Assembly (NCBI GenBank): GCA_035221665.1
Contig: CM069144.1
Location: 48,298,001-48,362,000 of the forward strand
DNA length: 64,000 nt
Direction: 5' to 3'
From: Okamejei kenojei
Taxonomy: Eukaryota
In this document: piece after piece, positions 12,604-40,960 of the stretch
Layout of the letters: each line of letters begins with the position of its first letter
How positions within the stretch are numbered: position 1 is the first letter of the stretch
Notes under the pieces: model-generated
The model's database searches: none
Told to the model about the DNA's origin: nothing
What the model saw: only the letters and a program-made list of their open reading frames with translations
Program-made: the position numbers and the translations under genes

Positions 12604-12950
12604 AATCACTAGGGAATGAAAAGAAACGCAGGGATGCAGATGTGCATTGGANNNNNNNNNNNNNNNNNNNNNNNNNNNNNNNNNNNNNNNNNNNNNNNNN
12701 NNNNNNNNNNNNNNNNNNNNNNNNNNNNNNNNNNNNNNNNNNNNNNNNNNNNNNNNNNNNNNNNNNNNNNNNNNNNNNNNNNNNNNNNNNNNNNNNNNNN
12801 NNNNNNNNNNNNNNNNNNNNNNNNNNNNNNNNNNNNTATCATATAATAACACTATATGTGATTGTATATATGTACATATATAGCGAAAGAGAGCTATACA
12901 GATCCAATGTGCATCTGCATTCATGCGTTTCTTTTCATTGCCTCGTGAAT
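12604..12950. repeat. 48-bp inverted repeat pair around an assembly gap (MITE/foldback-like)
   Basis: 12604-12651 AATCACTAGGGAATGAAAAGAAACGCAGGGATGCAGATGTGCATTGGA matches the reverse complement of 12903-12950, ATTCACGAGGCAATGAAAAGAAACGCATGAATGCAGATGCACATTGGA. Confidence 0.8.
12652..12836. other. assembly gap (N run); other gaps at 29411-29765, 29780-29960, 52678-52859 and 54227-54473
   Basis: Runs of n, several abutting dinucleotide or simple repeats. Confidence 0.99.
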
Positions 12951-20824: not shown

Positions 20825-21106
<282 letters not shown>

Positions 21107-21240: not shown

Positions 21241-22672
21241 ACCGGGCATGTGCGTGAGTGTACATACAAAAGTACTAAACTTATTTTTTTTAAAACAAAG
21301 AAAAGCAGCCATCATGAAAACAAATACGTATTTTGGATCACCCTGCCTCACGATTTTTTCAGCTATGCCTCACGTCTCCTAAATATCTGCAGCATGATTA
21401 GATTATGTCCCCATCCTCACTGTTTAGAATTTTATGGCGGATGAATCACAGATTAATAATCGTTTACTTAATTTATATTATCGACACTGACTAGTTACAA
21501 GACATTGCAGCTGCCGTAGCGGCCTTACATGCATATATACCCACGAGTAATTGTTTTGTTTTAATTGCAATAATATCTCAAATAAAGTTGAAAATAGGTA
21601 CCTGACTAGTTTTTGGATTCAAATTCTTATTTAAAACATTGATTCTCCCTGACACAAGCATAGCTTCGCTAATAGACTAATACAGCCGTTGTAACGCAAA
21701 TGCTGAAATAGCATTTTAAACAGACAACGGAAATGATTATTTGCTAATTCTATTTGCATTTTCGCTTTAATTAAACCGTTTCCAATTCTGTTTATTTAAA
21801 ATAAGAGTTAGTGGACATCTCATGCAGTGAAGTGAATTGTTGTTAAGTGCCCCTGGTGGTTTTGCAGTCGAGAAAATGTTAAATCTCGACTTTGCTAAAT
21901 CTTTACAACAACCTCGCCATTATGTGCCACTAACATGGACATTGTTGTCGAGCGCATTTTTTTTCACAAACAAACTGTAAACCAAGTTTTAACAAGGCGA
22001 TAAACCCGGGAAGATCCCAATATGTATGTATCACAGTAGGAACATATTATACCCATATATACTCGGACACGCGCTCGTACACATATACAATCACGCACAT
22101 AATATTTACGCGCAAATATATTTACATGAATAGAATTTTGTATCGACGAAAGTTGATCTCGCGGCTTTATGTAATCCACTAACACATATATGTGTAAAAT
22201 AATTACTATCAATAAAGAAGCCAAACTAAAGGGAGTGAAAAAAAAAACATAAGTATATGCTCTTTCGGGTGTGAATTTCTAACGAAACCAAGCAACCAAA
22301 TGTATTCTCATGTTTAGATAAAATTGACTATTAAATTGAAAATAAACTCTACTACGACGTATATTAGGTAAACTGATTGTACTTGAATTTTTTTTTAATG
22401 TATAGTATTTCATGATTTGGAACCGCGGTAAATATATATTTTTCTTATTGTTTAAAGAACCGCAGCCACAACAAGGAACATCAAGAGTTAAGGAACATCA
22501 AAGTGCTAAACATGCGAATTTTATTCTGACATGATATTTATTTGCATATGTATTGTTAAAATTGTTACTGAATAAATAATCTGGGAGACCTGTTTATTAA
22601 TATGATAGAAACGATCATAAACGCTCCGTAATATTTAACTTCTCCTTGATTTTTAAAAATAATTCTCCATAC

Positions 22673-23648
22673 CTGTGTGAGTTCTTTTGTGGATCTTGAG
22701 ATTTTCTGATCGAGCAAAGACTTTGCCGCAGCCGGGAAATGGACAGGGAAAAGGTTTCTCGCCAGTGTGGACTCTGATGTGATTTACAAGTTTATATTTG
22801 GCTTTGAAAGGCTTTCCCTCTCTTGAACACTCTTCCCAGAAACAGATATGGTTCGACTGTTCTGGTCCCCCTACGTGTTCCACAGTTACGTGAGTAACTA
22901 GTTCGTGCATCGTGCTAAAAGTTTTGTTGCATGATTTTTTAGGATTCGTCAACTGTTCGGGCTCTATCCATTTACATATCAGTTCTTGCTTTATGGGCTG
23001 CCTCATATAACGAAAGAAGGCCCCGGCCCCATGGTGGGCCGCCATGTTCATGTTCATGGGACCATAACTGTGTAGCTGGGTCGAGGCGTAGTGGTCCGAT
23101 CTGGGACTAGTGACCTGGCTGTATTGGTCTGCTCTGCCATACATGTCCCCAGAAAAGCCTAAGCGCATTTGCCCGTTCATTACATGTGCATTTGGAGAAG
23201 CGTGGGTCGTCGCCTGCTCGTGAAGCCCCGGAAAGAGTAGATGCCCCGCAGCGTCGGTATGTCCATGGGGTCCGGCAAAACTGCCCGCAGCCGCGGCCGA
23301 AGCGAACAGGCTGTGACCGGCACTTGCCGCCGCCGCTTCCCCAAAGCCCCGATTGCGAAACAAGAAGTCCCGGGTCGAGTTGAAAGCAGCGCTGCTGTAC
23401 GAACTCACATGGCCGGGGTGGTGACCCAGAGCCGCGGCGTAGCCTGGTGCCTGCGACGTGAAGGCAGTTTGACCCGATGCGAGATCGTGAGTGCTGGGGC
23501 TGATTTTAAAAGCACCCATCCCGTCAGCGAAAGGATTTATCCCCAGTCCCACTTCTCGGTCGTTGACATCGCCTGTTGAGTGATGTCGGGATGATCCGAA
23601 GGTAGTCACTCCTAGAGTAGGATATTGAGGTCCAGCGTCCAGAAGCAT
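22673..23648 (-). CDS. zic1: Zic1 coding exon 1 (N-terminus, ZOC motif, ZF-NC, zinc fingers 1-3)
   Basis: Begins [24 protein letters not shown] (Zic1 N-terminus) at ATG 23648. Contains the ZOC motif [31 protein letters not shown] and C2H2 fingers up to HKRTHTG. Ends at a phase-1 donor CAG|GTATGG; 976 nt. Confidence 0.97.
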
Positions 23649-23989
23649 CGTCTGGCGATGGGGGTAGAAAGTGAATAATAATATATAGAAAGGCAAACTA
23701 CAAACAATTCACAACGAAACTTGCTTAATATAAAATAGTCTCTGAGTCTGTCTGCAGGACTTGCAAAAACTCCTTATTTTTCTCTCTTCTCTCTCTTCAG
23801 CGTGTGGGAATTTGCTGAAGATATTTTCCCCCTCTGCAAACGCAAATCATGCAATATTGTCTTTTGCGGTTTATCTTCCTGGGGAGAAACTTTCACCTCA
23901 TCAGCCGGGCGGTGAGCTCGAGAATGATAGCGGCAATCATTCCTGCAGATAAATGAATTGAAAAGACAACACCGTCCCCTTGATGAATG

Positions 23990-24130
23990 GGAGTTGGGGG
24001 AGGAGTCACGTGGCGCTTGGCGTCTCCACCCATTGGCCAGGCTGGCGCTGCCCCGTTGTGCCCTGGTGCCAATCACCAGCTTGGGGCGCACATCCCGCCT
24101 CATGATTGGCCCGCCCGCCTCATCAATCCC
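23990..24130. promoter_or_regulatory. zic1 proximal promoter, possibly bidirectional
   Basis: GC-rich block ~350-480 bp upstream of the zic1 ATG. E-box CACGTG at 24007-24012; CCAAT boxes at 24032-24036 (-), 24069-24073 (+) and 24105-24109 (-); GC box CCCGCCCGCC at 24110-24119. Confidence 0.7.
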
Positions 24131-27100
24131 AGGTATTGTGCACCCGTGACAGTCGCTCCTGATAAATTATTGCCGTCCGCATTTTCTTTCTTTTTCTCCC
24201 CTCTCCTTTTTTTTATATATATAATATGGAAAGAGGAGGAGGGAAAGGGGGTGGGAGAGAGAACAGAAGAAAACTCTTGTCTTCTTCGACTTCACAATTC
24301 AGTCACCCCTTGTCAGACTGTTTGAAATTCGTTAATGTGCCACAACTCCAGACTAGGAAAAAAAGCGGGCGGCTTCCTTTGTTGTTCAGTAGCTTTTTGA
24401 TCGCCGGTGAAAATTCACTTACCCAGATGAGTGAGCAAAAAGAGAAAGAACACTCTATTGAATTGGGTTAGGAAAATGCATATGTTTGGATTCAGTACAA
24501 ACATACAACACTCGGTTGTTTTCGAGACGAAACCCTTGATTAACCTGTCTTTCCACATGTAAAAGGCGATTGAAAACATCTTGCTTGGTCCTTTTTTTTT
24601 ACTATGGTGACGATGAATTGCTCTATACATATCTATAGGTCTTCACACAATCGCAGAATAGCTGGAAGTAAGGATTTCCCCCTTTATGTATAAAAAGTGG
24701 TGCGCTTTTCATTGATTGCGGACAATGAATGCGGAAATTGTTTATGCACATCGTCAGTAAAGGAAAATATAGCTTTTTACCACATCATCTTTTAGTTTAC
24801 ACTTTATGATCCGCTGCCCCAAATTTGTTAAAGTCTATTTACTGTGTCCCTGTAAAGTTTTTTTTTAAATGAGGCCAACGGTTTGCATATTCATTAAGTC
24901 TAATTACATTCAAGGAATATAAACGTAAAAAGCCAACAAAGAATCGGAATCGTTCAATTTACCTTTTGTTCACCACTTCAATGAACTTCCTTGAAGCTAA
25001 ACCTCCGAGTTAAAGTCTTATTTTATAACAAAGAGGTCTTACCGCATCCTTCAACTATTATCTCCGTTAGCAAACCATCACTTTGGAAGGGCACTGCTTT
25101 CAAATAGTTGTCTTGTTTCCCCCAATCTATGCTCTTTCCAATTCTGTTTTGTGATTACCCAGTTTACACGAACACGTTTGCACGCTTTTTTTTTCAAACA
25201 AACACTTTAAAAAAAAAGTATTCACTGTTAAAGTACAAGAGGTTAACTTCGAACAAAATATTTCGCGCGAAGGTAATGGAGTATGCGAAAGCCCGGCGTT
25301 TGATTGACCACCTTAGGACGTTATTCCGCAGCGAAGTTCTATAGATATTTTACAGTAGCGCTGTTGCTCAAGGAAACATGTTTATCATTACGGGGGTAGG
25401 AGCCTGACGACAATGTTCGCACTAAGAGCTTAAAGCAAAAACAAATTAAAATTCATGCCACTTGGGTTTCCAATTTACAACAATTTGAGGCTACGTGCTT
25501 ACTATGCTGAAAGCATGAGGCCGATGTGGGTATTGAATAGGGTATTAGTGTAATTTTAAGGTACTTTAATGGTCTAAAATTGCCTTATGAGAAGATACTA
25601 ATTGTGGTTAAACTGACTATTCTGGCCCCATATTTGTGCACAAAAAGAAATCTTATTTGTCTGCTTTGGTTGTGCACTGGATATCCTACGTTCTTAAAGA
25701 TTTAAGTAGAACATAATATTGTCTTGCTGGGTGATTACAATAGCTAGCCTCATAGCGTTACTTTAAATGATGCAATATACTGATAACATTGATATTAAAA
25801 TCACAGCAGTCTAGAAGCAGAAGCTGGAGCAATTTGATTCAAAAAGATTTACTGCTCATTGAGTGTGCAAATTCTAAAGGGACACTTTAGGAGTATGAAA
25901 AGTAAACGTTTCCCATAGCATTATCTTTAGACTACTTCTCCCAATATACAAAGAAGGACTGATTTTAAAATTTGAAGGATGATAGAAGTTATCAAGTGGG
26001 ATTTGCGGCGTTCTCCGCAGGAAACGCAGGCTGCTTGAGTTCAAAGCCGCATGCACCGACGTGACATATAAGCCATTAAAATATCATCCTGACGGCTCAT
26101 TTCTGCTTCATCATACATTCCCTAACTGCTTCCAGAAACCTTGAAAAGGCGAAATGAAGAATGACTACCTAGTTGCCGCTACAAAGTCGATTTTTTTTAA
26201 ACTTCAGTTACCTGAATTAAATGATCGAAGACATCTTCTTCAACAGGTGGCGGACGGTAAGAGAGGCACGTGTATTCAAGTGACTTATACTAAACGACTC
26301 CTGACCCCTGAATTTCCATCATCTTTCATGTAAATGCAATTGACTAAAAAGAGAATAGAGATATCAGTCAGATTTTTGTTTCCTCAGAATAGCCCTTGTC
26401 AGGAGCCATCATGTTCCAATAAAAGCAAAACTAGGTGCGAGTGGCTTTGAATTATGCATTTCCATTCGAAAGCACTTGTGTGTACCGATATTATCCCTCG
26501 GATTGTTTTCGGTCGATGGATAGCAAAGCATTTGGTTGTTCTATGAAGGGAGGAGCGGGGGTGGGGGGGGGGGGGGGGGGTATATGTCTGTAGACTGAAG
26601 TAATAGTTTACAAAAGGAATTGTTTTAACTTGATTCAAAATTCGATGTTTTCCATGAATTCAATTTAAAACTGAAATTTGATTTCTAATTTGAAGTTAAT
26701 CTTTCAATCGCTTATTTGCGACAAACATGTATTAACTGTTGCTCTCCTTAAAACGCAGCTACGCTCTTAAACCACACTCGCAACTAGAATTGTTTTGTGT
26801 TCCAATGTATGTTCTAGTAAGTGAGAGAGCTCTTCAACAATTGCGTCGGTCAACGCGTGTCATTTATCGGTGCTTTTCCTGCAAGCAAAACGGTTTAGAA
26901 TTCTAAGATAATTAACTGATAATTGCTTACTTGCTTCAAGCAAATAGTCCAAGTATTGGAATGGACATTGGAATTATTTCAAAGTTAATTTGAATGTTTC
27001 TGAGGCCGAATTTCTTCGAGTTGATCGTATTGTTTGATTCCTGAGCCAGTGTATTATCGTTTCGTTTATTATACTTATCTCTATTAAAACTGATTCAAAT

Positions 27101-30100
27101 GAAGTTAGTCAGTTGGTTTCTGCGCGCAAGGATAGCTCTGAAGTCGCCGACTTTTGAAATACCATATCGTTTGACCCATGACCCGTGACCGACCACATGT
27201 GCCAAAGCCACACAATGCCACATAATGTATACCTTCGAAAAATATTAGCTGTCCTAGAGCTAAAACGTCGAACTGGAAAACAATTGTTCAATATGGAATT
27301 GTTCTATATATAAAATGAATGCACATTGACGTTTTAATGTTTCCACACTAACATAAGGTATATCATAATAGTAGAAACAACAGGATTTTAGTCGTGGGCG
27401 CTTCTGTGATCTGCTTGCTATCTATTTGCTTTGTTTGAGAAAAAAAGACCAATAACCATGTAACCGGAAATATGTATGATTTGGACACCGGCACTAAACT
27501 AAAATGTCATCAAACCAAAGATAATTTCCAACTGGTATTTTGGTGATTTCTGGGTAAGGTCCAATATCATTTCAAATTGTTGTTTAAAATAACGTCCAGA
27601 AGCTGGAAGTTAGACAGATTTATTAGACTTTCGATAATGGACACGTTATTGAGATTTTCAGCAGATAGTTTTGTATTAAAATTGCAGCTATCAGAAGGTT
27701 GCCTGGGCTAGTTTAGGGGCGGGAAGCAGAACTTTGAAGGCCACCCTTGGCTTTACCCATTATCTGACTGCCTGCCTTGAAATCTGTGCATGGCATCAAC
27801 GTTGGAGGTGCGAAAAGTGTATTGGATAATTTGTCCATGCAGAGTTATTGCAATATTCTGGAATTATTTCTAGTATAGTTGCAATTAGACAGGAATTTCA
27901 CATTACGATATTCAAAGGGATTTTTTTTAATCCAATGCGGGATTGAAAAACAAAACAGGTCTTTATCACTTATTCTCTTTCCTTTTTTTCTTAATTTATT
28001 CTTCAGCTATGGATGCTGAAGGGTGCTCGAAGTCTTAAAAACTGGAGATTCTTGAATTACGAGAAGAGCGAGTTTGGTGTATTTGAACATAGAAAGGAAA
28101 CATAACTTTAGAAATCAGTGCGCTTTGTTGATGTCGATCTTTCATAGTTACCGAAAAATGACCTTAATGCACGACAAGGCGCAACATCCTTTTATGTTGC
28201 TCCCGAAAATTTACCAACAGTTTTGGAATACGAGTGAATGGAGGGGTAGACATTATGGAGAACATTGTAAGGATTATTCAACACTAAGATATTGAAATTA
28301 CGACACGAACTGCCTGAAATATACGTAGCAAATAAGATGTTATTAGGATTATTAGTATAAAGAACAAAATATACCTAAAATCATAACGGTATAAGCAATA
28401 TGCTATGATAACTAATTTATAGATAAATAATTTATTTGGGGGGAAAAATATGTGTATGCAATATGCATTTTACATTTGTAGCTTTTGAACTATTCAAAAC
28501 AAATGGAGTTTGCATTTCCTCTGCAATCATATCCACTGCGATACGAATGATGTAGCAGAAAATAATGGCATAAAGAAATTGAAAGGCAAACTGTAATTTC
28601 GCTGTGTATTATGTATTGTTAATATTATTTGCCGAATGAACACTTGTAGCCCTAAATGCATGCCCTATACGTTTAAACTTCACTTCTTTGTTGAAGCTTT
28701 TGTACCCGCAAAGTTATTTAGTAATATAAATATATATTTATCTGCAACATTGTTACAAAAAGTAACTACGATTGGACTTTTTATTTGGTTGTCAAAACAT
28801 CCCCATAGAGTTGCTGGTGCCTCCTTGGAGTAAAATGCATACTCACGGCGAAATATGACAATGAGCATTTTGCAGGTTAGTTACTTTTTTAATTGATACA
28901 CTTACACGTCTTTACACGTCTTTACTCGCCCCTACATACACTTGGAAAGAAATGACATCCAAAAAAACCACATATGTTGTAAAAATTATAGATATTCTCT
29001 CATAGTTTGTTTTAACTTCCTTTGAATTGACGTTCTTTACTTAAAACAATGACTGCCAGCTCTTGGATTATCTTCGGCATTGTTTAATACACGACGAACT
29101 CTGAACAAAACCAGTTCCAGTATCGGCGTGACATTTAGCATCATCGAATTTCTAACTTATATCAAAAATAGAAACCGAGCCACTAAGATGCAAGCTTGCA
29201 AAATGAATAATTCATAGAATTATAATTAATATAACTACAATTGAAACCGCGTGTTATACTAATCAAGGTATTTTTAAAAATCTTTCTATGGTATTATCGC
29301 GCTTTCAATGAAATACCAACAATAAACTAAATAGTAATTTGTTCATTTGATAAGCTGTTGACACAACATAATGTTGTCCTCATAACGCATGTCTGTCTGT
29401 CTGCTGCCTGNNNNNNNNNNNNNNNNNNNNNNNNNNNNNNNNNNNNNNNNNNNNNNNNNNNNNNNNNNNNNNNNNNNNNNNNNNNNNNNNNNNNNNNNNN
29501 NNNNNNNNNNNNNNNNNNNNNNNNNNNNNNNNNNNNNNNNNNNNNNNNNNNNNNNNNNNNNNNNNNNNNNNNNNNNNNNNNNNNNNNNNNNNNNNNNNNN
29601 NNNNNNNNNNNNNNNNNNNNNNNNNNNNNNNNNNNNNNNNNNNNNNNNNNNNNNNNNNNNNNNNNNNNNNNNNNNNNNNNNNNNNNNNNNNNNNNNNNNN
29701 NNNNNNNNNNNNNNNNNNNNNNNNNNNNNNNNNNNNNNNNNNNNNNNNNNNNNNNNNNNNNNNNNAAAAAGCCTAACTANNNNNNNNNNNNNNNNNNNNN
29801 NNNNNNNNNNNNNNNNNNNNNNNNNNNNNNNNNNNNNNNNNNNNNNNNNNNNNNNNNNNNNNNNNNNNNNNNNNNNNNNNNNNNNNNNNNNNNNNNNNNN
29901 NNNNNNNNNNNNNNNNNNNNNNNNNNNNNNNNNNNNNNNNNNNNNNNNNNNNNNNNNNNNCGTTTTCGACCTCTAGTCTGAATCGTGGTCATTTACATTG
30001 TTTTATGTCGTCGCTCACTGTATAAATTAGTGACAGTACATCCCGCAAGCAGCTGTTTGCTGTAGATCAATGTACCCTGCCTGAAAGTACCAGTATTAAT

Positions 30101-33100
30101 ATTTGACGACCATAGTATTGTAACGACAACCTTCGACCCAGTCTACGTAGATCCCATATTTTTCCATGACAGTTGCATTATTTTGTTCATTTACGGATAA
30201 TTTGAATATAATGTGATTTGGAAGAGTATATTAGACCAACTTTGGAGTGGAGCTTTGGTTTTCTTGGTGGGTTTCTATCTTCCTAAATATCGGCGTTACA
30301 GGTATCTACATAGAGATGTATAACCACAACCATAATTCTCCGATTTATTCCAGATAAAACTTTCCTGCATCACCACTATTTGACAATGATAATGTTAGCA
30401 AAACGCATTTTCGGACAAGTGTCACCAAGAATATTTTTTAGTGTAAAGTTAGCAGTAATTCGGCAACAACTTGAACGAGGAGATCTTTTCCTCCATAATT
30501 GCTCCGTGTTTGCAAAAAAAGAATGCAACGCACCACTAGTGGACGTGGTTACAGTTAAAGGTATAAGGACATTTTTCAGAACAATACAAAAATATATATC
30601 CTTCAAGTTGTAGACATTCATAGGCATCGATTCTCCAAATTTGGTATAAATGTGGAATACTTCAATATAATTCGCAAAAGAGTGCTGACATTAGTTGCTG
30701 AATTGCGATGACGATTTTAGACAAGGGAAGTATGGTATATCTTTAGATAGTATAACTTTCCTTACAAAGATACAATCGTAATGGTACAAGTTATCTGGTT
30801 TCTAGCTTCTTTCCATCGCTGCTTAATCAGTTCCAGTCATAAACTAATGGTGAGATATAGACTACGGTATCTATTCTCTGCGGTCAACGCAGCGGGTAAA
30901 TTAACTAATCACGTGTATCTGTTTCCGACATCGAAAAGTGTGTTGAATTCTCTCAAAATCGCGTATACTTTAGCATTTTATATGTAGTGTGTTTATATTG
31001 TAGCTACATTAAAAGTGCAACTAGTGATCTTAACTCTAATGAGAACTGTATAAGAGCTCCCATTTTTCTCTAGCATGGTGATAACCTGTTATTACATCCC
31101 AGCCTTCTTCAGAGAAACTAAAGCATATTTTGAAACAAATGCTTTCTTTCGTCTTTAAATACATCGAAAACAACTATACTCCCTCGATTCTGCATTGATA
31201 GCTTTTACTGTTTCAGTTATCAGAAGAAATGTATCATGATAATGTTTAACTGTTATTTTTTTTTAAAGTTGACGTCTGCAAAAAGACGCGTGAAAAGCAG
31301 ATATGGCGGAGATACTGATATATTGCTCAGGCAAAACCAAACAATGCAATCAATTGGTGCTGCTTGAAGATTATATTCAACAATATAATTAGCCAGACAA
31401 AAGTCTAAGACTTATTGGCACATGAAATTAATATCCTCAGTTACAAGGGGGTGGGGCCTGGATGTAGCATCGTATGTACGCCAAGTACAGAATAAACATC
31501 TCATTTTAAAATGCAGCAAAGGTAAAAAAGTAACTCTGCTTTCTGTATAAAGTGCACCACGCTGATGTTGCTAATTAACCGCGATGTATCTATCATTCAG
31601 TATGTTATAGTTGCTACTTTCTTTAATCTGGGATATTATTCTGGTTTTATTTAACATGGACAGTTTGCATATTTTAAACATAAAACATGTTATACCCGTC
31701 TTCATAATCAAACTTCTTTAATTAAATATTTGCAAAATGTATCTTGATAAGATAGAATGGCACGGAATTCCAACACCGCACATCACTAACGTAAACCACT
31801 CACAGCTTGAGTGTGCGCAGTCAATCCTAGCTATTAGACATACTATCCCATATTATGTTGCTTGTTAAAAATGCTGTCCAATGCTTCATGTTGCTCGATT
31901 TTAAGTTTTTGGGGGTGATTTAATGGACAACCTATTGCCCTTTGCCAGAAATATAATGGGTCCATTGTGTTTATTGGCAATATCAATCAGGATATCCTTA
32001 GATTATACCTTATGATTTAAACTGCAAACATGCACCAACTCACGCACTTGCAACAAGCTGAATTAAACTGTAGTAGAATGAAGAATTTCCTTCTTCATTA
32101 CGTTAAACGTTCAATGAGTGGGTTGAAAGAAAGGCGTATAATGCGTGGAATATTGGGACCCAAAATAGCGAGATTTTTCGCTACTTTTCATATCAAATTT
32201 GGTCAAAAAGGACATTAACACATTGCATCAAAATAACGCCACCACCGAGATGTTATCAAAAAATGTTATTTCCCTAATCTGTTCCCTTCCAATGCGTTCT
32301 TCGAAATACAATTTTGCGAGGAAATAATTAGGAATTTACATTGCTCAGTTGTATTTTAACTATGCGGAGTACCATGTCAATTTATTGCATTCCTCGTAGT
32401 GTTTTTTTTCCGCTGTTTTTCATACAACACAAAGGTATAATCAAAGTTCCTTGGCATCTCTGTTGGACTTCTTTCGTGTTGATCCTGTAGTCTACAGACC
32501 TGGAATTCTGAAATAATTTCCTGTTTATAATGGGGTACAGGAAGCTGTGAACTGCCGATCATAAGGAGGATATAAAATCCAGCTCGTTTTGTTATGTGAT
32601 GTTTTAATCACATTGGGAAACAATCTAATAAATGAATATAAGAGTAACATTCTAATTTCTAGACAATTTGGGGAAAATGTTGCACTTCTCTTCCAGAAAA
32701 GCAAATCTCACATAATTTAGCGATTTTTACATTTTATTTTTGAAATAAAACATATGATTGTGTGAAGGGATCAATTATATAACATAATAAAGTGAATTGC
32801 TGAATCACCTCAACCTTATTGTTAGGTATGAGTGCACGTCTCATCATATCTAATATATCCTATACTTAATGTAAAGAACAAAATGTTTCATCTGTCTAAA
32901 ATGCATTTATAATGTTGCATTAGTAACGTTAGCGAGGAGTATATCCCACTTTGACTATTTTTTTTATTTGAAAGTCTACCGTAATGGAATATTCTTACTG
33001 TCTAGTGCTTTTTACTTCAAAGACACGAAACAATACTGCAAAATTTGCAGCCCTCGATACTTTAGGTGTAATAGTGCATGCATACGTGGAATAACGTATC

Positions 33101-35974
33101 CACAGTGACAACGTGAACATGTTATTCAACATTATAATTTACTTGTATGTTTCTCGTATATTTACGTTTACGGAAACATTTATATATTGAAACATGCATA
33201 AGCAGTCTGTTCTTTTCTAGGAATTGACAATTGCTGCTGAAAAATTGCTCGGAAGACAGCAGGCAAACGGACACTAAGGTGGGGGCTCGATCAGGTAATG
33301 CGGACGCACATGTACAAATCCCATTTTAAGCCTGCAGTGTGAAGCCCTAGAGGCTAAGGTATAAACGTGTCAGCATTCACAGATCTACACTGCATCCTTC
33401 TCTGTTGCACAGCAGAGCTTTATTTGGGTGATAAATAAAAACACGCAAAAATCTATAGATTATTCACCCGCTTTGTGATTCCACCTGATGGTCAAAATAT
33501 GGTAGATGCAAATAGTCCGTGAATTAACAGAAATAAAAACGTCAACTATTGAAATATTTGCTGTTTATAAATATAAAGCATGCACCGTAGTGCAAGTATT
33601 ATTGCATGAGATATTCCAAAGCCTTTTAATACCCATATGTGAAATCATTGTTTGGCAGTGAATATGCGTTAATAACATTTTTTTTCTGAATTATCTTCCT
33701 GGCCCTCCTTGCGTTTTGAAGGTTAGTGTTTACAAATTGAGCAAATCTTTCATTATATTCAACATATTTGCCATGACTAAATAGAAATGTTTGAACAACT
33801 GTGTGATCTTTCTCCCCACCGCCATGCCTATATCCCTCCCCCACGTGTTCTCATCTGATCATACTTTTTAACCATTTTTTTCTTTCTTGATTCTCTGGAT
33901 ACATTCCCCACGCGTATAACGTTGCTTACGCCTTTTCTCCTTCTTATCTCACTCCCAGCTTAAATTTGGTATTTCTGTTTCTTCCCACCACCACCCCCGC
34001 CCCCACAAATTTCTCTCCACATTATAACTCCCACCTCCCTTTGAAAACCTACCTTTTTTTCTCTCTCTCTTGCACTGTAGGTCTGCTGTGTGCAGCAAGA
34101 CTGCAGCCTTCAAGCCCTGCCGTTGATCAGCTTAGAACGACGGCCTAAATCCACGGATATCGCAGCACTAGGTTTCCGTTCCCCTTTTGTACCCTTGGTG
34201 AATAATCTGAGGAGCCACAACGTACATGTTTGAGTTAGTAGCCCGTTTTGTCACCCTGGTCTTCTCTGAAAAATCAAAGTCTAAACTACTTTTCACTTAG
34301 ATGGCAGACGTCTGTACTCAAGGCGACGTACACAGACGATCTGCACTAAGAGCAAGTTACAGATGCAGACATAAGACTGTATGTTGGGGGAGGGATTGTA
34401 AGCAGCATTGCGTTCGGGTATTAGAATAAATATATGAAATCGTAAGGCTGATATGAAGACGGGAGATCGCTTTAAAAGTCTTTCATTCACGTGTGCCCGT
34501 GCAAAGATACAAGCACACGGTAATTTATCATCACGTTATCTTTCTGCGGGCCTCCCGCAACACGCTACACTTTACTTTCTTTTCCACCACAAGCGATGCG
34601 GGTTTCCTATTTGCGGATTACGCTGTGTGTAGCGGATCTCGAAGCACGGTCTGGGATCGCCTTCGCAAGCTGTAGTTTTGGAATTGGAAACACGTTTAGT
34701 TTTAAAACGAAACACGTTTGCTTCCATGTGAAGTAGGCAGTAATTCAAATCGCTTGCCAATCTGTAGAAAAACAGTACCGACCGGGGATTAAAAAAAAAA
34801 TACAACGCCTAAGAAAATAGAAGTATTCCCTCTCCCCCTCCCCCATCCCCACCTTCAAGTCTGATCCAACATCCTCCACCAAAAGCCAAACTTTCCCTGG
34901 ACTCTAGCTTACAGAATTACCAAGCCGGGACTGCGGGCAAGAGAACTCAGTAAGTTATTACATGCTGAGAAAGTTTCATACTCAGTCTCGGGAAGAAAAA
35001 AAAGTTAACAGATGCCTCTGACTGAGAATCTCTTTGATCGTCTGTGCCGCTAAGAACACCAGCCGTCTGATTTTGTCAAAAAAACATAACACGCCTGGCA
35101 GTCTGCGAGTGTCAGCAAAGATAAAAAATCACTAACTAATATCCGGCCGGAGTATAACAGGCCATAACCTCATTTTAAGGTTTAGTGCCGAACCTTCTTG
35201 CCCGCAAAAACTAAATTCTTGCATAAACCACAGGATCTGCTGTGGCTCAGTACAGCGGTGAGCGGGACACAGTGTTTGATGTTGCAAAACAGATACTGGT
35301 ATTTGACTGGCTCATACACCGGGTAAACTTTCCTACACGTCTAACTGTATATTTGTCCGTGAAACAAACACAGTTGTAACACCTCATATTATTTTTTAAA
35401 ATCCTGCAGCAACGCATAATCCCTGCTTTATTTGCCCTTTTAATCTCTCCAAAATAAAGTGAGATCCAGATTAATAATCAGCGCACATAATTTAATTTCA
35501 TAGTTGAGAATACTTTATATAGACTAGAATCTTAAATGCTTCCCAATTTATCGTTGGCGGAAGCTCCCGGCAACGACCAGATTTTAGCAAAAGTGAACAC
35601 AGAAAGGAGGTAACAAACGGCAAATATTCGCTATTTATAATATTTTCACACAAAAAACTCCCGCTCTGATCAACTTTTAAAGATGTACAGTGTTTGTTAT
35701 TCCCTTAGCTGATTACTCTTAAAAGAGCAGAAATAAGCGAAAACGGTTACAGATTTCTCTAATAAAATGAGTGTGTTTCAAGAAACTAGCAGAAAAATCC
35801 CACGCCCTTCAGCCAAAAAGATTTTTCCATGTTCCCATTCACCCCTCAACTCCCCCCCTCCCTCCCTTACCCATTGCCAGTGCCCTACCCTGCCCCCCAC
35901 CCCCTCCCCGCCACCCCATCAAACATCGGTCGGGTGTAATACGCATGTGTCCCGTCTGGGGTCCGTAACTGGCA

Positions 35975-36070
35975 CTGTCTATCATTGGGAACTCACCAAT
36001 GAGATGGCGTGTTGCTCGCGGAGCCCGACGGGCTACAAAGCTGTTCATGAATTTCAATTCAGTTTCTCAA
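35975..36070 (+). promoter_or_regulatory. zic4 proximal promoter
   Basis: Inverted CCAAT pair TCATTGG-n7-CCAATGA (35982-36002), YY1-like AGATGGCG (36002), TATA-like TACAAAG (36034) and Inr-like TCAGTT (36059-36064) ~27 bp downstream; about 150 bp before the ATG. Confidence 0.55.
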
Positions 36071-36211
36071 TGCTTCCTGCTGCTGCCATCCGTCTGCACT
36101 CTCTACACCGAATGGCTTTCCACGTTGGCAAAGGGCGAGTTTTCAAAGTTCGGTAACTTTTGAAAAAAAAAAGTTTCTTTTATTATTTTCCTGCAGTCAG
36201 GCATTATAAGC

Positions 36212-37358
36212 ATGGATGCTTTGGGGACTCCGATGGTGGACCCATCGTTCGCCAAGCGAAACCCAGCGCTGAGATTAGTAGACTTGGCAGGAGCGCACCA
36301 CCATCATCATCATCACCATCCCCCCCAGAGCATGACAGGCTTCCCGGGGCTCAGCGGCCATCCCCACTCAATGGCACACACGCACCCTGGGGAGAATACT
36401 GGAGAACCCCGCCTGGGGCCGAGTCCATTCGGGCCTGAACACATGGGGCACCCTGCAGCCGCCGCGGCACTTAAACTCAGCCCATCCCATCCCCATCACC
36501 ACCACCACCACCACCATCACCATCATATGGCAGGCCACGCTGATGTTGTCTCCAATCCAACGGCAGCGTATGGCCCAGCGCAGGCGGCAGCAGCAGTCAG
36601 TTATTCGGTCTCGCACTCTCACGCCAGCTATACTGCCCAGGCTATCTCGGCAGGTAGAGACTTCCTCATCCGCAGAGATCTGACATCCTCAGTCATGCCT
36701 GGCCTCACAGATCAATATCCTGGCACGAGTTCTCACCACGGAATGTTTGTATCAACAACAGGTAGCTATCCCGGACACCATGGTCACCCCGAGGCTGGAA
36801 ACCACTCTCTTTTCCCAGGACTCCATGATCAGACTCCCCATCCAGCCCCAACTGGACACCATCTGAACGGACAGTTAAGACTGGGGCTACCTGGAGATAT
36901 GTACGCCAGGTCTGAACACTACGGCCAAGTGGCAAGTTCCAGGAGTGATCCTTTTGCCTCTTCCCCTCTACATAGCTACGGTGGCATGAACCTAGCAGCC
37001 CACCACGGCCCAGGTGCTTTCTTTCGCTACATGAGGCAACCTATCAAGCAGGAACTGATCTGCAAGTGGACTGAGCCGGACCCTGTCACTAAAAAACCAT
37101 GCTCAAAAACTTTTAGCACGATGCACGAACTTGTTACTCACGTAACTGTGGAACACGTAGGGGGACCAGAGCAGTCGAACCATATCTGTTTCTGGGAAGA
37201 GTGTCCAAGAGAGGGAAAGCCTTTCAAAGCCAAATATAAACTTGTAAATCACATCAGAGTCCACACTGGCGAGAAACCATTTCCCTGCCCATTCCCCGGC
37301 TGCGGCAAAGTCTTTGCTCGATCAGAAAATCTCAAGATCCACAAAAGAACTCACACAG
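36212..37358 (+). CDS. zic4: Zic4 coding exon 1 (long His-rich N-terminus, ZF-NC, zinc fingers 1-3)
   Basis: [32 protein letters not shown] is the non-mammalian Zic4-type N-terminus. Also [26 protein letters not shown] and C2H2 fingers. Phase-1 donor CAG|GTCAGT; 1147 nt; head-to-head with zic1. Confidence 0.96.
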
Positions 37359-40300
37359 GTCAGTACCTTAGAAGGATCGTTATTGCATGTTTATTTCATT
37401 TCCGATGTGCAGAAGTTAACAAAATAATAAAATAAATCTGTCGGTTTATTACCAGTGGGACTTCAATACAAACGCAGAGTGACGCTGTTTTTGTTATGTG
37501 TTTTGGAATTTAGCCTAATTTTCCCAGCATATATATAAATGACGCAGCTCTGAGAACTTCGTAATGTTGTGGGTAATAAATAATCGACATTGTTTTAGCT
37601 GTAACTGGTCTTATAGGTTCAAATTATGAAGCCGCGCAGGATCAATTTCTGTAAAAAAATGAAGACACTATTTTTTTATATTTCAGGCGCAGTTAAAAGG
37701 CTTATTTTTGCGAAAGCATCATCCTCAAGTATCTGTGAACGTTGTTTTGATATAAACTAGCTTTAAATGAGAACTTTTGCAGATTTTTTAAAAGAGAAAG
37801 TAATGAGTATATTTCCTGTTAATTTTGCGAGAATCTAGAAACATAAACTTGATCATTTTAATGTTTTAATGTTCAATATCATATTTTGCATCTGTTCGGA
37901 ACTTATGAGAGTTTTACCGTCTCCACTGATTATTATTTATAGAGCCAAACATGTTATAAGCCTCAAGAGTAAAGAAAGCAAGTGTTCAGGCCTAGTTTTT
38001 CGAAAAATGCCTTTTTGCAGAACCATTTGTGAAACTTGGGCCTGTGTCAAAAACATCTGCTAGTTTTAGTTAAGCCGCAAGTAAATTGCGTAGATCGAAG
38101 CTTACTGAAAGCTGTTTTTGAACTTCCCAGGACAAGCTATAAGTAATGAAACTGCACGTAAAAATTTCACACTCTCGGGAACAGCTTCTATTAATTGGTT
38201 TTAAGCAGCGGTTTGACGCGTCGCTGGCACGTTCCTCGCACTGAGCTCTGCTTACGCGCGGCCTTGCTGGGGTACAAAATATTAAAGGGTAACGTAGACC
38301 CCTCGAAATCTACCCTCCCTCCCCCCCCCCCCCCCGCTCACCTCCCACCTTCCCATACTCTCAAGCCCTCACACCCTCTGCTCCCCACCCCCACCCAATA
38401 CCGGCTATCTCCTTAGACGCTGCACATATTTCAGTTCCATTATCTATTCGGCGGGCAGCAAAACATGTTTTGTTGGCCGTGGTTAGTCCAAGTATAGTTG
38501 GCGAAGGGAAATATGGGGGAGGGCCAGGGAACGAAAGCGGAGGAGGGGGGGGGGGGGGGGGGGGGGGTGATAGGTGGGGGAGGCGAATGTTTGGAGTGGT
38601 GAAAGAGAGAAGGATTCTCCGTGAAATCAATGGACATAATTTAAACGAGGCAGTATGCTGCACTACAACTTCCATTCGCCCCGTAATCGTGAAATGTGGG
38701 TTAGCTTTCTATCGATCGAAGTCCACTTTCAGTGTATATCGGATCAAGAGGTGGTTTGTGACCATTTTTGTTTACATGAATTATCATGGGTGCATATTAA
38801 GAACAAAATAAATGTTTCCTCTATATATTGTAAACGAGTCAGCACAGATGGCGCTGTATAATACTGCTTATGGGAGCGGGGTGGGGGGGGGGGGGGGGGC
38901 GATAAAATGCATAGACCATATTTCAGAAATGTATCAGGTCATGGCGTTATTCCGTCCTATATTTTTAAATGGTGGAGTATGTTACACATGCAAATGTTTT
39001 CTGTGTTGCAGGCGCAGGGCAGGCGCGCTGCCTATGCGTATCTGACACTTGATAGCATTGTATTGTGCTTGCCTAAACAAACTTTCCCAGCATTTCATCG
39101 ACTTCAGCTCAGCAGTTTAGAGTGCTGAGCACTTAATTTACAAGAGCTTTTCATTCGACCCACCGTATATCTATTTATTTAAACTAATATAGCAACCAAT
39201 GAAAGGGCCGAATGTTTTGCAGCGCCGAATGCTCACACATTTCCATATTTCAGTTAAATAGCGTTCTCCATATGTTGCAATTAATCACTGTAATTATGAT
39301 AAATATTGCATTTCTCTTTCAGTTTCAAATTGAAAATACTAATGTTGCTAAATTCTTAAATAAAAAATAGCAAGTATAGTAATTCTATTAACAAAGTAAT
39401 TATCTTGTAAAATATTCATGTCGTTTGATTGGCTTCAGTCCTTTATAGGCAGGTTTTATTGAATTGAAATCCCGTCCCTTTTACATTATTTATTTCAACA
39501 AGCATGAAAAGATCGCCTCTGGGTAAACAAAGGCTTCAGTAGTTCTGTCACCTCACTTATAAAATATTACCACTTAAGGTTTAAACCTGGAATTAAACGT
39601 AGATATTAAAATAATTTATTAGAATGTGCAAACAGCTTGTGGAGTTTATCACCAGGTAGCCATCTTCCCTTAAGTTATCTGATGCAAAGTTGAGGAAGGC
39701 CATTGAGACTATTTTTAAAATATTTCAGCCAGGGTTAAGCTAGCTGGTGAAATGACAGTTAACAAGGATTGGTCGCAGTTAATCTTACATTACTCACTCT
39801 TTTATACACAGCATTAATAGTAAAGAAGGAGAAATGTGTAGCCAGGAGGAGTTTAGAGCTCCCGGGAATTGTCAGAGCAGACTTCATGCTCGTAGTGTCG
39901 GACGCTCCAGACACGGCACAATAACAGTGTTTATGCGTCTGGGCTTCCCCATGGGCCCACTAACTTACTACTAGCTTGTACTACACTAATATCGTTGATT
40001 GGCCGTCTCAACCTAGCAAGTGAAGGTCAAATTATTCTAACGGCTTTCTGAACGTTTGGCTAATTACGGTGCAATATTAAATCGACATTTTGAGAGTTCG
40101 GGGAAAAGAACTCAGTTGCAAAGCACGTAGCTTTTCACTGTAGCTGCTTATATTGACTGCTGATGTCGTTCATTGTGTTAAGCTTAGATTTAATGAAGTT
40201 ATTTTTAAAATTAAGTTAATTATCAATATGATTTTTTTTTGCTATTTTCCGGTTTTGGTCCGCCAGGAGTTTATTGCAAACCACAAGAGCGTGGCTGAAT

Positions 40301-40523: not shown

Positions 40524-40960
40524 GTGAAAAACCCTTTAAATGCGAGTTTGAAGGCTGTGACAGACGTTTTGCTAACAGCAGCGACAGGAAAAAGCACTCT
40601 CATGTGCATACAAGTGACAAGCCCTATAACTGCAAAGTAAGAGGCTGTGATAAATCGTACACGCACCCCAGTTCCCTCCGTAAGCATATGAAGGTCCACT
40701 GCAAATCTCCTCCTCCAAGCTCGGGCTACGAATCCTCCACCCCTTCGCTGGTATCTCCGTCCTCGGACTCAGGTCGGGACCCCCCGGCTCCAGCCTCTCA
40801 GCTTGACCCCATCACATCATCCCACGCAGCTAACCTGAGCGAATGGTATGTGTGTCAGAGCACGGGAGCAAGTGGAATTCCAACTCCTCCAAGCAATTCA
40901 TCATCGCCTGGACCAGGAGAACATTCTTACAGGAACTCTGATCCCAGAACTATTATCTAA
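40524..40960 (+). CDS. zic4: Zic4 coding exon 2 (zinc fingers 4-5 and C-terminus)
   Basis: Acceptor TTTCCTTTTAG|GT. Encodes [70 protein letters not shown]...NLSEWYVCQ...RTII-TAA. KHSH and CKVRGC are Zic4/5 signatures, and there is no second intron. Spliced CDS is 1584 nt (527 aa). Confidence 0.96.

Follow-up and report, generated by a model that had tools for sequence, protein, structure and literature searches.

A near-identical zinc-finger tract in the inverted zic1 and zic4 genes of a skate, consistent with gene conversion

Layout of the zic1/zic4 pair and its shared tract

Our analysis concerns a 64,000-nucleotide stretch of the genome of the skate Okamejei kenojei (assembly GCA_035221665.1, contig CM069144.1, positions 48,298,001 to 48,362,000; hereafter the window), which holds zic1 and zic4, a divergently transcribed head-to-head pair made up of a subclass A and a subclass B member of the Zic family, each encoding five C2H2 zinc fingers (ZF1-5). 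zic1 lies on the minus strand and encodes 445 residues in the coding exons 23648-22673 (with the ATG at 23648), 21072-20909 (exon 2, ZF4-5) and 20510-20313 (exon 3, to the stop codon). zic4 lies on the plus strand and encodes 527 residues in a large coding exon at 36212-37358, for which the start ATG is inferred and a further upstream exon is possible, and a last coding exon at 40524-40960 that carries ZF4-5 and the C-terminus. A first-pass annotation of the window had assigned both names and the inverted arrangement, and these are upheld: the spliced zic1 protein is 100% identical to the named ZIC1 of Leucoraja erinacea over 445 amino acids, and zic4 matches a Rajidae ZIC4 isoform at 99.7% over 296 amino acids and a Scyliorhinus ZIC4-like protein at 94%.

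The reverse complement of positions 22671-22925 (zic1, minus strand) aligns without gaps to positions 37106-37360 (zic4, plus strand) with 6 mismatches in 255 nt, which reproduces the near-identity first described for the pair. The shared tract consists in both genes of the final 253 nt of the large exon together with the donor GT, and encodes the second half of ZF1, ZF2 and ZF3. The mismatches lie at 22899/37132, 22860/37171, 22826/37205, 22752/37279, 22743/37288 and 22737/37294 (zic1/zic4); five are silent third positions, a bias (p=0.018) of the pattern expected of evolved coding DNA, and the remaining one, TCA/CCA, exchanges Ser for Pro, so that the tract peptides agree at 83 of 84 residues. 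The block is split by these mismatches into exact runs of at most 73 nt, and their clustering is without significance (p=0.15).

Both edges of the tract are abrupt. Past the donor GT the ungapped identity of zic1 and zic4 is 23% across the next 60 intron bases, confirming the sharp end that had been reported there. The 5' wall is a divergent ZF1 linker (22926-22967, minus strand, in zic1), which has a two-codon indel relative to zic4 37070-37105. Just upstream of it a 17-codon zic1 peptide (22968-23018, minus strand) is the same in protein as zic4 37019-37069 yet differs at 9 codons, as previously counted, and is not homogenised. The spacer between the inverted copies (22926-37105) measures 14,180 bp and contains both 5' gene halves and the promoter regions. 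Sensitive BLAST found no homology between the introns or flanks of the two genes, the matches being confined to coding exons and low-complexity sequence, and on these grounds a wider duplication or shared flanks are rejected; nor did it find a third copy of the tract in the 64-kb window.

Silent divergence along the genes and the age of the pair

Among degenerate codons that encode the same residue in both genes, 5 of 81 differ within the tract, compared with 9/15 just upstream, 28/52 in exon 2, 61/94 in the N-terminus and 13/24 in the C-terminus (tract versus adjacent coding flanks, Fisher p=1.8e-11). A change-point scan over all 273 such codons, in our own implementation, placed the best segment at codons 237-325, in essence the tract itself, where 5/84 differ as against 114/189 outside; its likelihood ratio (LR) of 82 was matched by none of 200 permutations, the highest of which reached 24.7. 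The contrast is the same at four-fold degenerate sites, with 48 of 73 differing outside the tract (Jukes-Cantor (JC) distance 1.57) and 2 of 34 inside it (JC 0.06), which bears out the earlier claim that silent sites elsewhere in the pair are saturated. Exon 2 of zic1 (20909-21072) serves as an internal control. The first-pass figure of 18 differences among its first 34 same-residue codons is recovered when the split Gly codon is included (17 without it).

The possibility that these silent sites agree by chance, or because two genes encoding a wholly conserved peptide converged on the same codon preferences, draws on the near-complete identity of the tract peptide, but it is scarcely credible. 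When synonymous codons were shuffled within the tract, the 20,000 shuffles gave a mean of 37 differences and a minimum of 20, where 5 are observed; whole-gene codon usage predicts 48.8 differences in the tract, and for exon 2 it predicts 30.6 where 28 are seen. We consider chance and codon bias ruled out by these expectations. Exon 2 is conserved equally in protein (53/56 residues) and is nonetheless saturated at silent sites, and it follows that protein constraint alone does not yield silent identity. Within this otherwise saturated exon we also observed a 20-nt exact match (21013-21032, minus strand; 40564-40583, plus strand), which is probably due to chance and possibly a short conversion patch.

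The two genes are ancient paralogues, as the first-pass annotation had stated. With the tract removed, a quick method applied to 333 columns from 45 selected, named Zic proteins gave a tree that sets Zic4/5/6 apart from Zic1/2/3 with a Shimodaira-Hasegawa-like approximate likelihood-ratio support (SH-aLRT) of 100 and places the window genes on opposite sides of this split, and thus in different Zic subclasses. The Zic tandem duplication is reported to predate the vertebrate genome duplications (PubMed Central (PMC) accessions PMC7403390 and PMC6175831). That silent divergence should fall 15- to 25-fold within one block of so old a pair requires exchange between the genes, constraint on the nucleotides or an artefact.

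Across the window the ratio of observed to expected CpG is 0.25-0.45 over 1-12 kb and then 0.64-1.18 throughout 12001-64000; this CpG-rich domain of more than 50 kb around zic1 and zic4 is probably unmethylated in the germ line. A 202-codon open stretch on the minus strand at 2656-3261 resembles the reverse transcriptase of a long interspersed nuclear element (LINE) and may be a remnant of one.

Probable gene conversion and the alternatives to it

We propose that the tract is probably the product of ectopic (non-allelic) gene conversion between the inverted zic1 and zic4 genes, 14 kb apart, a reading drawn at the DNA level from a single genome. The same cause was favoured in the first-pass annotation, and it is the one best fitted by the 5 differences in 81 silent comparisons and the LR of 82, for which codon bias fails to account. 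On genomic DNA the homologous coding blocks of the pair are an upstream block of 108 nt, the exon-1 finger block of about 270 nt, whose first codons are divergent, and exon-2 blocks of 114 and 54 nt. Only the longest unbroken block is homogenised, and its walls, the indel-bearing linker and the intron, are where homology ends. A set of 337 labelled named Zic proteins was compared across the tract; 316 have it ungapped, and 21 that were gapped, truncated or unmatched to the pattern were dropped. Labels follow the source names, with seven corrected by sequence, and the set consists of top matches and cluster members, as opposed to a systematic sample, and is without eutherian Zic4. Of the 84 tract positions, 63 are more than 98% invariant across the 316 proteins. 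Purifying selection on the ZF1-3 protein would keep this block similar enough to act as a repair template, so that a double-strand break in one copy could be repaired without crossover on the template of its paralogue, 14,180 bp distant, and the silent sites thereby reset. The other blocks (108, 114 and 54 nt) may be too short or too interrupted for copying. That conversion needs a minimum length of homology, cited as at least 50 bp, is stated in PMC3199776; for skates the argument from block length is an inference. A crossover within the inverted tract would invert the spacer and swap the 5' halves of the genes, producing chimeric genes and no deletion. The window shows the native arrangement, both genes having their own 5' and 3' halves, and fixed full-length chimeras numbered 0 among 174 Zic1 and Zic4 proteins classifiable at both ends and 109 further Zic4 proteins. 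Neither GC content at third codon positions (GC3) nor protein sites polarise the transfer. Homogenisation need not have a function of its own and is most likely a by-product of protein constraint and proximity.

Several observations weigh against gene conversion as the explanation. GC3 in the tract is 0.42/0.46 compared with 0.50-0.65 elsewhere, giving no sign of GC-biased conversion, and the tract includes no intron beyond the GT. The 84-residue tract protein tree is unresolved, and an approximately unbiased (AU) test that compared it with a subclass-B clade, leaving identical rows unconstrained, gave a borderline p=0.049. At the unconverted start of exon 2, Zic1 and Zic4 are 2.9% apart while Zic5 stands at 5.6%; Zic1 is thus closer to Zic4 than Zic5 is in a segment that was not converted, and protein identity in other species is therefore no evidence of conversion. 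We accordingly set protein trees aside as proof of conversion, given the unresolved tract tree, its many near-invariant positions and the similar closeness in exon 2. The Ser at tract residue 34 of zic1 is common to the named RefSeq Zic1 proteins of Leucoraja, Mobula and Hypanus and absent in Heptranchias and Callorhinchus, and Pro34 is found in 15/15 chondrichthyan Zic4 sequences; either this codon has not been overwritten since the split of skates and stingrays, or Ser arose twice or was selected at what is a homoplastic site.

The low GC3, contrary to what biased conversion predicts, and the end of the block at a splice donor would also suit a nucleotide-level constraint, in which an exonic regulatory or splicing element has been frozen in both genes since the duplication with no exchange between them; conserved enhancers are known at Zic loci (PMC6175831). 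We regard this as highly improbable. Such an element would have to hold silent identity at 94% over a time that exceeds the age of the genome duplications of vertebrates, other lineages change tract residues at positions 3, 13, 24, 27, 32 and 34, and no report of one was found in the open-access literature, judged by titles and the beginnings of abstracts. No RNA family or structure marks the tract either: Rfam has no match in the window, and the folding z-scores (0.53 and -0.33) are unremarkable. Read antisense in register with its codons, the zic4 tract has a frame of 72 codons without a stop (37106-37321, minus strand). At least 118 antisense open reading frames that resemble it are present in protein libraries, and they are most likely shadow frames of Zic genes; the best of the 118 matches is 62% identical to the skate antisense peptide, a weak point against constraint in records clustered at 50%, and among 44 candidates there was no named match in a comparison that covered proteins longer than 126 residues.

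An assembly or polishing artefact, in which reads from one copy were used to fill or correct its counterpart, is very improbable, although the scaffold is gapped, with five runs of N (181-355 nt) in the window, and chimeric bird gene models (below) show that assembly joins at the tract do occur. None of the N runs lies in or near the tract copies, the nearest being at 12652-12836 and 29411-29960. A copied segment would be identical, whereas the two copies have six differences and share only short exact runs; these follow a codon pattern, and the Ser/Pro difference has its match in named batoid proteins of RefSeq, which makes copying by the assembler unlikely. Both genes also retain native 5' and 3' halves, and cross-filling itself presupposes near-identity.

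Under gene conversion, the silent divergence of the tract (dS) gives a guide to the time since the last exchange: it is 0.06 at four-fold sites to 0.10 over all silent sites, with a 95% interval of 0.03-0.27. Skates and stingrays separated more than 100 million years (My) ago. For whale and zebra shark a median dS of 0.061-0.111 is reported at a divergence of about 50 My (PMC13100897), and scaling by this rate gives an age of about 30-80 My for the tract (range 14-217), a figure that applies a genome-wide rate from sharks to a developmental gene of a skate and may be too young. The conversion had been called recent in the first-pass annotation; dS at shark rates, together with the Ser34 shared with stingray Zic1, leaves that word unsupported. 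The last homogenisation probably took place within the cartilaginous-fish lineage, tens of My to about 200 My ago. These figures bear on the idea of one very old conversion, on the stem of the jawed vertebrates or of the chondrichthyans, after which silent sites evolved unusually slowly, with nothing since and no recurrence. In its favour are a slow clock (7e-10 mutations per base per generation in the epaulette shark; PMC10587355), the lack of significant clustering of the tract mismatches, the sharing of Ser34 across batoids, a tract peptide that is identical in nine aligned Zic1 and Zic4 rows, with sharks and amniotes among their sources, and the CpG-rich domain, which may lower the mutation rate at the locus. 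We consider it unlikely all the same, since at published shark rates the upper 95% bound of the tract dS, 0.27, translates into about 120-220 My, which does not reach back to the split from chimaeras at about 421 Ma (million years ago; PMC3692497), and since the bird chimeric models would, indirectly, require renewed identity in a lineage with a faster clock.

Whether the exchange recurred in other lineages was approached through the protein set. In the tract, Zic1 and Zic4 differ by a mean of 0.2 residues in birds, 0.6 in other reptiles, 1.0 in chondrichthyans, 2.8 in amphibians and 5.3 in ray-finned fishes. The chondrichthyan Zic2-Zic5 distance is 7.1 residues, and zic2/zic5 gives no comparable homogenisation in protein. 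These distances fit, but do not prove, conversion limited to some lineages and to the zic1/zic4 pair. The intron starts of zic1 and zic4 differ, and the difference is conserved in both skate and birds; of 39 bird Zic1 models, 23 read past the donor, 17 into the Zic1 intron and 3 into the Zic4 intron, with 3 unclassifiable. The Zic1 models that continue into the Zic4 intron are those of Accipiter nisus (P0125, 99 residues) and Nipponia nippon (P0200 and P0202), two of 19 classifiable species; in them a Zic1 5' half meets Zic4 intron-1 sequence at the point that corresponds to window 22673 and 37358. No reciprocal chimera turned up, all 16 classifiable Zic4 read-throughs carrying the Zic4 intron. 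The joins are probably assembly errors; an assembly mis-join, a real inversion of the spacer and conversion into the intron are the candidate explanations. They are suggestive of a shared exact stretch at the exon end, although the strong codon bias of GC-rich genes in birds could supply a short one. Of the earlier phrase 'recent or recurrent', recurrence retains only indirect support, from these bird models.

Zic1 and Zic4 of one species also share tract substitutions, at homoplastic sites: P34A in Hymenochirus and Ranitomeya and I27V in Lissotriton (protein pairs P0305/P0038, P0304/P0026 and P0380/P0073). Xenopus Zic4 retains Pro34, unlike Zic4 of Hymenochirus and Ranitomeya. Marsupial Zic4 of six out of six genera (P0024, P0597, P0602, P0606, P0609, P0610) has a Zic1-type Asn directly before the tract, at the codon corresponding to window 37103-37105, where most other Zic4 proteins have Ser; either the tract extends in marsupials by a further codon on its 5' side, or a single convergent change may account for it. 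Two other entries deserve mention: P0052 (Anas, named ZIC4) is Zic5-type with a duplicated ZF1-3 segment, and P0106 (Callorhinchus) is a divergent subclass-B protein, probably Zic6. As a tentative proposal, to which we give somewhat less than an even chance, ZF1-3 may have been exchanged repeatedly and independently between zic1 and zic4 since a duplication that preceded the genome doublings, in elasmobranchs, birds, other reptiles, perhaps marsupials and some amphibians, the process having shut down for ZF1-2 in ray-finned fishes, at their distance of 5.3 residues, and in zic2/zic5. If true, it would make zic1/zic4 an exceptionally long-lived example of vertebrate transcription factors that evolve in concert over part of their length, across the Zic A/B boundary and with built-in escape controls, and the tract would also be a point of inversion or mis-assembly that yields Zic1/Zic4 chimeras.

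Consequences and comparison with known systems

Zic phylogenies, and the definition of subclasses A and B, rest on the zinc-finger domain. If ZF1-3 has been overwritten between Zic4 and Zic1, then trees, dates and selection tests on this segment mix two histories, and public bird gene models already hold Zic1/Zic4 chimeras joined at the tract. The family also offers a natural experiment on when old duplicates escape conversion, in the comparisons of zic1/zic4 with zic2/zic5, of elasmobranchs with ray-finned fishes, and of the 253-nt block with those of 108-114 nt. The skate is a developmental model, and probes over the tract would cross-hybridise between its zic1 and zic4. The practical warnings of the first-pass annotation hold in part: 13 of the 24 NGG sites for CRISPR guides in the tract are identical in both genes, but no 75-nt window of the tract is, and reads of at least 75 nt can therefore be assigned to zic1 or zic4.

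We found no report of zic1/zic4 conversion in open-access PubMed Central and bioRxiv, a scope outside which subscription papers or supplements may hold one. PMC13431155 mentions zic1/zic4 only in the title of a reference, a study of chick (PMC2908108) goes no further than to remark that the fingers are highly homologous, and a conversion case labelled 'ZIC and GLI family' in PMC2724270 proved to be ZXDA/ZXDB and was rejected. Conversion of this kind is known from other pairs and seems to be undescribed for zic1/zic4.

The mammalian pairs BMP8A/B, DDX19A/B and TUBG1/2 (PMC2720389) resemble the skate genes in the mosaic homogenisation of a linked pair, inverted in the case of BMP8A/B. Their duplications are more than 100 My old, with tracts that cover an intron as well as two exons at more than 97%, whereas the Zic pair is older than the genome duplications of vertebrates. 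Because that screen filtered for two exons plus an intron, a tract within one exon would have escaped it, and Zic genes go unmentioned in the paper. Identity through the intron, a mark of long-term concerted evolution, is not found in zic1/zic4 (23% over 60 nt). The palindromic Hsp70 and Amylase pairs of Drosophila (PMC3924832) are alike in their inverted orientation, which favours conversion over copy-number change, but there whole genes stay alike, while in zic1/zic4 it is one block of otherwise diverged proteins. The hexapod pair engrailed/invected (as cited in PMC3199776) is likewise an ancient linked pair of developmental transcription factors with conversion of the DNA-binding domain.

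The closest likeness in the compared features is to Dlxa/Dlxb of Capitella teleta (PMC3199776), which are inverted transcription-factor paralogues in close linkage (18 kb). Although they diverge overall, they are nearly identical, silent sites included, in the 5' exon part of the DNA-binding domain and only there, and the GC of their tract is not raised. That paper also aligned other inverted Dlx pairs, mammalian ones included, and saw no such identity in them. The Capitella genes are those of an annelid, stand tail-to-tail and have a 150-bp tract running into the intron; the skate genes are those of a vertebrate, stand head-to-head and share 255 nt that end at the donor GT and cross the Zic A/B boundary. 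Placed among these systems, skate zic1/zic4 draws interest as a vertebrate case and through the great age of its paralogy. Reportedly, the case for engrailed/invected rests on data from many species, and that for zic1/zic4 on DNA from one genome.

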